A DNA stretch of 7,660 nucleotides, from the IMG/VR virus record IMGVR_UViG_2778261541_000007; one strand, 5' to 3'. The notes under the pieces were generated by a model. The model was given only the letters and a program-made list of their open reading frames with translations. It did no database searches and was not told the origin of the DNA. This document shows positions 6,875-7,399 of this stretch, piece after piece; position 1 is the stretch's first letter; each line of letters opens with the position of its first letter. Made by a program: the position numbers and the translations under genes. The DNA comes from a virus. Its lineage: Duplodnaviria > Heunggongvirae > Uroviricota > Caudoviricetes.

Positions 6875-7399
6875 TTATTGTTTAACCCATAATAATTCAT
6901 TGACATTGAATCCCAACTTTTGAGCGGTTCGCACATAGTCTGCTTTTACTTTATCTGGAATAGTTGGGGTCCTTGCCAGAATCCATAGGTATTCTCTGTT
7001 CGGACCACTGACAAGAGCATACTTATACTCATCATCCAGTTTGATTACATTATAGCCACCATAGAAGGGGCCAAAAAACGAAACCTTCAACGCTGCAGTT
7101 TTAGTATCTCCAGTAAAGTATGCTTTACCTTCGCTCTCGCTCCATTTATTTTTCGTTGGATCGTATCCACGGTTAAGTACACGAATCCCTCCGTCGTTCC
7201 GTTTTCCATAAGTAGCGCTGACCTGTTCCAGACCACGTTCGAACCGGTTCTCGAGGCGAGCTATTTCATACCATTTTCCGAGGTAGCGGTTGGCGTCAAA
7301 ATTTGTAATCGGCTGCACACCTTTAGGTGGTGTCGGGGCCTTACATGCTATAAGAGTGAAAGAGAGTGCAATGCCAGTCAACACAGGCCATAACTTCAT
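6875..7399 (-). CDS. Blc-like bacterial lipocalin, outer-membrane lipoprotein, 174 aa
   Basis: Signal peptide with lipobox LIAC (Cys19). Core NFDANRYLGKWYEIARLENRFERGLEQVSATY...EGKAYFTG...AALKVSFFGPFYGGYNVI...YLWILARTPT resembles E. coli Blc (roughly 60% identity by eye against my recalled sequence). SD aggat upstream on the minus strand. Confidence 0.85.
   Translation of the reverse strand: MKLWPVLTGIALSFTLIACKAPTPPKGVQPITNFDANRYLGKWYEIARLENRFERGLEQVSATYGKRNDGGIRVLNRGYDPTKNKWSESEGKAYFTGDTKTAALKVSFFGPFYGGYNVIKLDDEYKYALVSGPNREYLWILARTPTIPDKVKADYVRTAQKLGFNVNELLWVKQ

Follow-up and report, generated by a model that had tools for sequence, protein, structure and literature searches.

A Blc-type lipocalin gene downstream of the Q antiterminator gene in a DLP12-type prophage: a likely moron from a second enterobacterial lipocalin clade

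The stretch of DNA analyzed here (7,660 nucleotides [nt], hereafter called the window; IMG/VR virus record IMGVR_UViG_2778261541_000007, Caudoviricetes) carries a blc-type lipocalin gene on its minus strand, between the gene for the antiterminator Q and the remains of the gene rudS. We consider it rather probable that this gene is a moron, a passenger gene which lambdoid phages carry for the benefit of the lysogen. An earlier note, made from the sequence of the window, had suggested a role in lysogenic conversion. Such a role is plausible and agrees with the proposal of Mathieu et al. (2020).

6875 to 7399, minus strand: blc-type lipocalin lipoprotein gene, 174 amino acids (aa), ATG start, TAA stop; Cys19, Lys20.

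The 174-aa lipoprotein with a lipobox which the earlier note had placed here agrees exactly with the coordinates in the list of open reading frames. The product of the coding sequence is identical to WP_000780581.1 (UniProt A0A0A1A117). Its N-terminus, MKLWPVLTGIALSFTLIAC followed by Lys, matches the PROSITE-type lipobox rule (lipobox LIAC, Cys19, Lys20 as the +2 residue). Assignment to the lipocalin family was borne out by profile searches. Pfam Lipocalin_2 (PF08212) matches with an E-value of 7.2e-44 (149.7 bits vs. a cut-off of 24), with residues 35-174 spanning profile positions 2-146 of 146. The score for NCBIfam NF007786 (outer membrane lipoprotein Blc) is 316.1 bits and thus passes the cut-off of 267, with residues 1-174 placed on profile positions 1-174 of 176. 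The alignment to Escherichia coli Blc, proposed earlier as a check, is gap-free and shows 60% identity to the K-12 protein across all 174 residues. PDB structures of E. coli Blc match at E-values of 1e-68 to 1e-69 (3mbt [3.5e-69], 1qwd, 2aco).

Residues Cys19, G41, W43, and R143 are invariant in an alignment of both lipocalin clades described below, and G41-K42-W43 and R143 are kept in both homologue alignments. Among the 72 invariant columns across 25 aligned sequences are the lipocalin core motifs, namely the G-x-W near the N-terminal end of the barrel and the conserved Arg in the third conserved region. An AlphaFold2 model computed from 25 aligned homologues was poor (mean predicted local distance difference test score [pLDDT] 59, predicted template modeling score [pTM] 0.49) and was not used. 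A Foldseek search with this model returned Blc structures at the top, but with a template modeling score of about 0.42 and a root-mean-square deviation of 7 Å, which adds nothing beyond the sequence match. As the predicted model is poor, the lipocalin fold, an eight-stranded antiparallel beta-barrel with a helix at the C-terminus, is predicted from the gap-free 60% identity to crystallized Blc. By these matches, the window protein is a full-length Blc-subfamily lipocalin with a predicted lipoprotein signal.

The nearest non-phage relatives of the protein are encoded in Enterobacter, Leclercia, Buttiauxella, Cedecea, Klebsiella, Kosakonia, and Raoultella and are 71-82% identical to it, whereas only 57-61% identity is found for the products of canonical blc genes, which adjoin gdx/sugE with or without ampC. 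Neither the window gene nor its 71-82% identical relatives are ever found beside gdx/ampC, the position at which an orthologue of blc is expected. Buttiauxella izardii has one lipocalin of each clade (loci L022 and L027). Judged from these relationships, the phage gene belongs to a paralogous second enterobacterial clade (clade B) and is not a copy or an orthologue of the host blc. The earlier note had spoken of a second, phage-borne lipocalin. The phage lipocalin is indeed additional to the chromosomal one, as the chromosomal blc remains next to gdx/ampC, but it is not a duplicate of E. coli blc and comes from a different enterobacterial clade.

Among 13 clade-B species genomes, the lipocalin gene is divergent from that of an MlrA/BluR-family MerR-type regulator in nine, and rudS is located within 3 kb of it in ten. 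This regulator is 38% identical to E. coli BluR. The 319-aa protein encoded next to the phage lipocalin gene is RudS, a TudS + DUF1722 fusion which acts as tRNA 4-thiouridine desulfidase. RudS from phage 1H12 (gp66, RudS_vir) has been expressed and is active on tRNA, less so than other variants (PMC11417400). Phage RudS is 73% identical to a chromosomal RudS encoded near an 82% identical lipocalin (chromosomal range 70-73%). Because both phage genes resemble neighboring chromosomal genes, blc and rudS were probably captured together. The MerR-type regulator gene and a transthyretin-like gene would have been lost, and an AraC-type gene is now adjacent. The DNA similarity to donor-type loci is limited to the coding regions of blc and rudS (65-74%), which indicates that the capture is old or that the true donor has not been sampled.

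The idea that lipocalin genes are generally linked to MerR-type regulators and rudS was rejected, as this linkage is confined to the close enterobacterial clade and more distant lipocalins are devoid of it. No photolyase gene was found downstream of rudS in Enterobacter, unlike in the ybgA-phr operon of E. coli. In Cedecea (L010 97-5883) and Klebsiella (L011 93-5883), the regulator instead heads an operon with genes for SnoaL_2, SDR, amine oxidase, DUF1365, CFA-synthase-like, and DUF2878 proteins. This operon resembles the fatty-acid-modifying clusters of singlet-oxygen and light regulons. A literature search for a link of lipocalins with DUF1365, photolyase, or LitR yielded no relevant paper; a bioRxiv match concerned only host lipocalin-2.

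Co-capture leads to a different view of what the lipocalin does, namely that it forms, together with RudS, one stress module against near-UV, blue-light, or photo-oxidative damage. RudS would strip tRNA of the photosensitive 4-thiouridine, oxidized or lyso-lipids of the envelope would be bound or removed by the lipocalin, and the AraC-type regulator would replace the MlrA/BluR-type switch of the donor. This view draws on the closer relationship to the rudS-linked clade than to canonical blc, on the neighborhood of rudS in ten of the 13 genomes together with the 73% identity of the RudS proteins, on the fatty-acid-modifying character of the Cedecea and Klebsiella operon (CFA-synthase-like, DUF1365, amine oxidase), and on two blocks of the donor promoter region that are retained upstream of the phage gene (see below). 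In addition, light-responsive operons governed by MerR/LitR regulators have been reported to contain rudS genes, and the growth delay caused by ultraviolet A (UVA) light is smaller with RudS (PMC11417400). However, the phage module lacks a MerR-type gene, and its AraC-type protein is unrelated to that family. DNA homology to donor loci does not reach beyond the two coding regions, and the distant lipocalins do not have the rudS/MerR linkage. The only expression data concern a beta-lactam (PMC13459554) and not light, and the RudS paper (PMC11417400) does not mention a lipocalin. Moreover, blc is intact where rudS has been destroyed (in the window and in strain BL21), which shows that blc does not need rudS. 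We thus consider it unlikely that the two genes act jointly against photo-oxidative damage, and similarly doubtful that, co-captured from an Enterobacter-like MlrA/BluR-controlled locus, they still form one conversion module that has been rewired to the phage AraC-type regulator. If this were the case, E. coli lysogens would gain a near-UV/oxidative envelope-stress response otherwise absent from the species, and the lipocalin would be a previously unrecognized partner of the RudS/LitR-type light regulon.

That the lipocalin gene is a moron is indicated by its distribution and by the slot which it occupies. A survey of 5426 complete E. coli genomes with the 886-nt stretch 6720-7605 as query found this stretch in 1146 of them, nearly always once, on the chromosome, and annotated as "lipocalin family protein." The Q family is present in 3435 genomes, compared to 1146 with the blc-type cargo. 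At least 1000 contigs have a record of the exact protein WP_000780581.1. The lipocalin gene is also present, with 97-99% identity, in twelve cultured lambdoid phages. Most of these phages were isolated by Mathieu et al. (2020, PMC6969025), who count blc among the morons; over 50% of their 19 infant-gut lambda phages carry it.

The gene order is Q, blc (on the opposite strand), the 319-aa gene annotated as "YbgA family" (rudS), a gene for a 243-aa helix-turn-helix (AraC-type) protein, and the genes for holin, endolysin, and spanin. This full order was found in AR_0077, phage 1H12, phage IdasGreatGrand, and an ST69 strain, and also in a decayed remnant at the Qin site of E. coli HS. The Qin-site remnant of BL21(DE3) contains only Q, an intact blc, and a rudS stub. 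For the slot survey in related prophages, which had been proposed in the earlier note, 80 IMG/VR viral contigs were examined. Order and orientation are identical in all of them, and all five genes are intact in 60; in K-12 the slot holds nmpC::IS5. The cargo is thus a fixed module of blc, rudS, and an AraC-type regulator gene preceding the holin gene. The lipocalin gene had been described as cargo of the slot; it does occupy the slot, but as part of a three-gene module. As expected for a moron, it lies between conserved phage modules, and different cargo (nmpC::IS5) is found at the same place in K-12.

The third cargo gene (L001 11184-11915) codes for the 243-aa AraC-family protein. This is YdeO/GadX-like but below cut-offs, its best NCBIfam match being YdeO with 127 bits, far below the cut-off. 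The gene is more variable than its neighbors and is partial or contains stop codons in about 12 of the 80 viral contigs. Its identification with the MerR-type regulator of the donor was considered and rejected, since the "HTH protein" is AraC-type and unrelated. In BL21(DE3) (CP081489.1, L005 6873-7937), rudS is cut after about 147 nt and is followed by the O7 O-antigen genes wbbD, wzy, and vioA/B, evidence of a large deletion or rearrangement at this site. The genes borD and iss directly follow the lysis genes in the same prophages.

Selection was analyzed on a sample of 87 blc copies. All of them are full length, without a stop codon or frameshift, and they represent 24 nucleotide alleles which code for 12 proteins. 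Polymorphic sites at the three codon positions number 12/7/34. The mean ratio of nonsynonymous to synonymous substitution rates (dN/dS) is 0.12 for blc, compared to 0.07 for Q, 0.18 for rudS, and 0.22 for the AraC-type gene. The blc gene is thus under purifying selection. It has stayed intact in the decayed Qin-site remnants of HS and BL21(DE3) and beside the IS1-destroyed rudS of the window. These data bear on the notion that the gene is a neutral hitch-hiker which persists through linkage to a successful Q allele. It is always associated with the same Q family and module, and its many near-identical copies could reflect a recent spread. Nevertheless, a dN/dS near the value of the essential Q gene, the complete lack of disrupted copies (0 of 87), the survival of the gene in remnants with decayed neighbors, and the reported presence of the protein (PMC13459554) speak against it. 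Neutral hitch-hiking is contradicted by the selection data, and we consider it barely credible.

For the lipocalin as a moron, the following course of events is proposed. The protein would be exported by the Sec system and, as is general in lipoprotein biology, lipidated at Cys19. The Lol system would then sort it to the inner leaflet of the outer membrane, as suggested by Lys, rather than Asp, at the +2 position. Its hydrophobic beta-barrel calyx would bind lysophospholipids or fatty acids, as extrapolated from the 60% identical E. coli Blc, and ligand binding might aid envelope lipid homeostasis under stress. E. coli Blc is stress-induced and binds lysophosphatidylethanolamines (LPE) at nanomolar affinity (PMC8177097), and its G84E variant lowers gut LPE (PMC7026729).

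The ligand could also be heme or another tetrapyrrole instead of a lipid, and the protein would then help to deal with porphyrins or oxidative stress in the periplasm. A role as a heme binder has been put forward for E. coli Blc, with a crystal structure of heme-bound split-Blc (PMC8177097), and a heme-bound plant temperature-induced lipocalin (8wb2) is among the sequence and fold matches. This evidence, however, concerns a 60% identical paralogue for which heme binding is termed potential, and the nanomolar affinities of Blc are for lysophospholipids (PMC8177097). A heme-binding function is thus regarded as very unlikely.

Another view of the protein starts from its predicted location. Several lambdoid and T5-like phages have genes for small lipoproteins of the outer membrane which block the receptors of competing phages. 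The lipocalin might accordingly act like Cor or T5 Llp and exclude superinfecting phages or mask their receptor. Besides the established existence of such lipoproteins, this is favored by the dominance of membrane proteins among lambda morons (Mathieu et al., PMC6969025) and by an independent acquisition: Morganella phage IME1369_01 (L094 4965-5480) carries a gene for a 54% identical Blc-type lipoprotein between its lysis genes and the small terminase gene. Yet no PADLOC defense model matches the window protein, and its PHROGs family (phrog_2809) has no assigned function. The 71-82% identical relatives are located in chromosomal metabolic or stress loci rather than in prophages, and 72 invariant columns across 25 sequences fit a conserved ligand pocket and not an evolving receptor interface. 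We give little credence to an exclusion function. The independent capture of a Blc-type gene by IME1369_01 suggests that phages benefit from such genes. In that phage the gene and the late genes share one strand, so that an antisense orientation is not essential.

Since the lipocalin gene is oriented opposite to its phage neighbors, it needs a promoter of its own, and the region upstream was inspected.

7400 to 7591, no strand assigned: divergent blc-rudS intergenic region, 192 nt, 33% G+C, with a putative promoter function.

7592 to 7605, plus strand: first 14 nt of rudS, cut by IS1, as seen by comparison with the intact 960-nt gene in L001.

7606 to 7660, plus strand: left inverted-repeat end of IS1, which runs off the window, as seen by a match to the sequence upstream of IS1A.

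A Shine-Dalgarno sequence (AGGA) is located 6 nt before the blc ATG. A -10-like element, cATACTT, is found on the minus strand (7437 to 7431), about 31 nt before the ATG, and aligns with CTACACTT of the chromosomal clade-B lipocalin genes. In K-12, blc has TCTACACTT about 30 nt before its ATG. By the established consensus, the CTACACTT/TCTACACTT element is a sigmaS-type -10 element. At this position of the alignment, the phage copies read cATACTT or aATACTT, so that -11A and -7T are kept and -12/-13 are changed. A second conserved block, AATATAGTATGAA, is found at 7486 to 7474. Alignment with the clade-B loci thus identifies two short blocks of the chromosomal donor-type divergent promoter region upstream of the phage blc, and transcription might start from a weak sigmaS-like promoter of the gene in the blc-rudS spacer.

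The best sigma70-like match within 6600-7660 (10 of 12 positions) is a hybrid site on the minus strand (7592-7619). Its -35 element TTGGCA is inside the IS1 end, its -10 element TATCAT overlaps the rudS start codon, and it points toward blc. Insertion of IS1 may thus have added a promoter for blc.

Expression of the protein has been reported without reference to a prophage. A tandem mass tag (TMT) proteome (2026) of the carbapenem-resistant E. coli strain CCUG 70745 lists WP_000780581.1 / A0A0A1A117 under the name "Blc" (PMC13459554). As this accession is identical to the window protein, the "Blc" of that proteome is, by sequence, the prophage copy. It was quantified both in uninduced and in meropenem-treated cells. 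After 15 min with meropenem its level had risen 1.99- and 2.98-fold, which places it in a group of envelope-stress lipoproteins; its "outer membrane" label is a DeepLocPro prediction (PMC13459554).

Several points weigh against a lipid-handling moron that is expressed from a promoter of its own. The -10-like element differs at -12/-13 from CTACACTT of the chromosomal genes and is a candidate only, and the scan detected no sigma70-type promoter upstream on the minus strand except for the hybrid created by IS1. The lipocalin gene also appears to lack a U-tract terminator of its own. In PMC13459554, the prophage origin of "Blc" was not recognized, and its signal may not be separated from that of chromosomal Blc by unique peptides. 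The ligand would be that of a 60% identical paralogue, whose own physiological role (lysophospholipid or heme) is debated (PMC8177097). Finally, the donor context with its MlrA/BluR-type regulator and rudS points to a stress other than the stationary-phase role of canonical Blc.

The part of the window preceding the lipocalin gene is described by three further features.

6342 to 6719, plus strand: Q antiterminator gene, 125 aa when counted from the RefSeq ATG; Pfam Phage_antitermQ with E-value 2.5e-51.

6720 to 6817, plus strand: expected Q-dependent late promoter (pR'-like) and Q-loading site, placed here by reference to lambda biology.

6818 to 6850, plus strand: intrinsic terminator (tR'-like) with a 9-bp G+C-rich stem followed by T7, from a terminator scan.

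The plus strand of the window encodes emrE, ybcK, ybcL, ybcM, ybcN, ninE, ybcO, rusA, ylcG, and Q. The lipocalin gene was rightly singled out as the only minus-strand gene: every other annotated gene in the stretch from emrE through quuD reads in the plus direction, and it is the only plausible one in the opposite direction. Positions 417-6701 are 98.4% identical to DLP12 of strain K-12. At 417-418, K-12 has IS3 inserted in renD, and the window is devoid of IS3. A block with 36% G+C (644-4637) represents a second cargo stretch in the same prophage, with emrE and the genes for the serine recombinase YbcK, the PEBP-family periplasmic protein YbcL, and the AraC-type regulator YbcM. Two lambda genomes of Mathieu et al. 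also carry emrE (PMC6969025). Rfam and tRNA scans of the window yielded no match.

An upstream TTG at 6327 would extend Q to 130 aa; the gene is annotated with 378 nt in L001, L005 (BL21(DE3)), and L006. Homology to K-12 DLP12 (quuD) stops at 6701, which is 18 nt 5' of the Q stop codon, so that the last residues of the two Q proteins differ. The recombination junction between nmpC-type and blc-type cargo is located inside the 3' end of Q (6701-6719). Beyond the end of homology, an alignment with K-12, AR_0077, and two phages shows only short blocks in common with K-12, namely TTGCTG at 6732 and ATATAACAG at 6794. No site in 6720-6817 reached the consensus threshold of the promoter scan; two candidate hexamer pairs are both below it. 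RNA folding of 6818-6850 gave -14.9 kcal/mol (z -3.5) for the plus strand and -13.3 kcal/mol (z -1.0) for the minus strand, on which the same hairpin forms without a U-tract.

As the earlier note had stated, the DLP12 slot of K-12 holds IS5 and nmpC: quuD is followed by nmpC, which is interrupted by IS5 and is also on the minus strand. The antisense layout is thus not special to the lipocalin gene. Window positions 7605-7660 match, with 100% identity, the 56 nt in front of the IS1A transposase gene of E. coli HS. The start of IS1 was set to 7606, as base 7605 matches the flanking sequence by chance. This 55-nt IS1 stretch has a median of 10 copies per E. coli genome, and the exact rudS-IS1 junction is absent from the complete E. 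coli genomes of the collection. The element is a DLP12-type cryptic prophage in which blc is left as a domesticated remnant and rudS has been destroyed by IS1.

It had been expected that late transcription runs antisense through blc upon induction. The orientation on which this relies is confirmed, as blc runs against Q and the lysis genes in every one of the 80 viral contigs and in six other annotated loci. In the lysogen, by reference to lambda, the terminator between Q and blc would shield blc from the constitutive short late-promoter transcript. During lytic growth of an intact phage, Q-modified polymerase would pass the terminator and cross blc in antisense direction in order to reach the lysis and structural genes. 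By analogy, such read-through is expected in the intact phages 1H12 and IdasGreatGrand. It is doubtful for the prophage of the window, because this matches the cryptic DLP12 up to Q and has IS1 immediately downstream; its lysis genes are outside the window.

The gene has already been annotated and published as a lambda moron, and the observation is thus correct but known in descriptive form. What is new is modest: the gene has been assigned to its clade, its probable joint capture with rudS and a donor-type locus have been recognized, selection has been put into figures, and the proteome "Blc" has been matched to the prophage copy. Our general understanding of phage morons is unchanged by these findings. 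About one in five complete E. coli genomes carries a second lipocalin, which makes it one of the commonest phage-delivered envelope proteins of the species. A single Blc substitution has been linked to gut LPE levels and to epithelial barrier damage (PMC7026729), and such effects of Blc could be confounded or modified by a widespread extra lipocalin. In reports on "Blc" from clinical E. coli, the two genes should be told apart. The link to rudS provides a testable idea about the role of the whole cargo module.

When compared to known systems, the window gene proves to be the same gene as the blc moron of Mathieu et al. (2020, PMC6969025), where 97% identical copies from 1H12, Lambda_ev*, Lambda_2E9, and others are annotated as "Lipocalin Blc"; that study gives the frequency and a cited role in membrane biogenesis only, and does not cover the clade, the rudS link, the donor locus, or selection. 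With Bor/Iss, the lipocalin has in common that it is a small predicted outer-membrane lipoprotein whose gene is close to the lysis cassette and opposite in orientation to the late genes. Bor/Iss are expressed in the lysogen, are unrelated in fold and family, and act in serum resistance, a role that is not indicated for the lipocalin. The porin morons nmpC/lc (DLP12 and PA-2-type phages) occupy the slot after the same Q family, are also opposite to late transcription, have an outer-membrane product, and are likewise cargo into which insertion sequences have moved in cryptic prophages. The K-12 cargo gene nmpC is itself cut by IS5, whereas in the window blc is intact and its neighbor rudS is cut by IS1; a porin and a lipocalin lipoprotein have no sequence relation.

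E. coli Blc (b4149) is of the same length class (177 vs. 174 aa) and shares the lipobox, the position of the Cys, and the core motifs, and the sigmaS-type -10 element of K-12 blc has a related element at the homologous place in the window. Unlike the window gene, which resides in a prophage, canonical blc adjoins gdx with or without ampC and belongs to the other clade. At position 84, where G84E alters LPE binding of E. coli Blc (PMC7026729), the window protein has Asn. The genes of the second clade differ from the phage gene in being chromosomal and in their G+C content of about 55% (by eye) vs. 44%. Their MerR-type regulator gene and the transthyretin-like gene, which lies between lipocalin and rudS, are missing from the phage module, and the gene order differs. 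It is nevertheless this clade (Enterobacter, Leclercia, Buttiauxella, Cedecea, Klebsiella, Raoultella) with which the phage gene has 71-82% protein sequence identity, the rudS neighbor, and the conserved upstream blocks in common.

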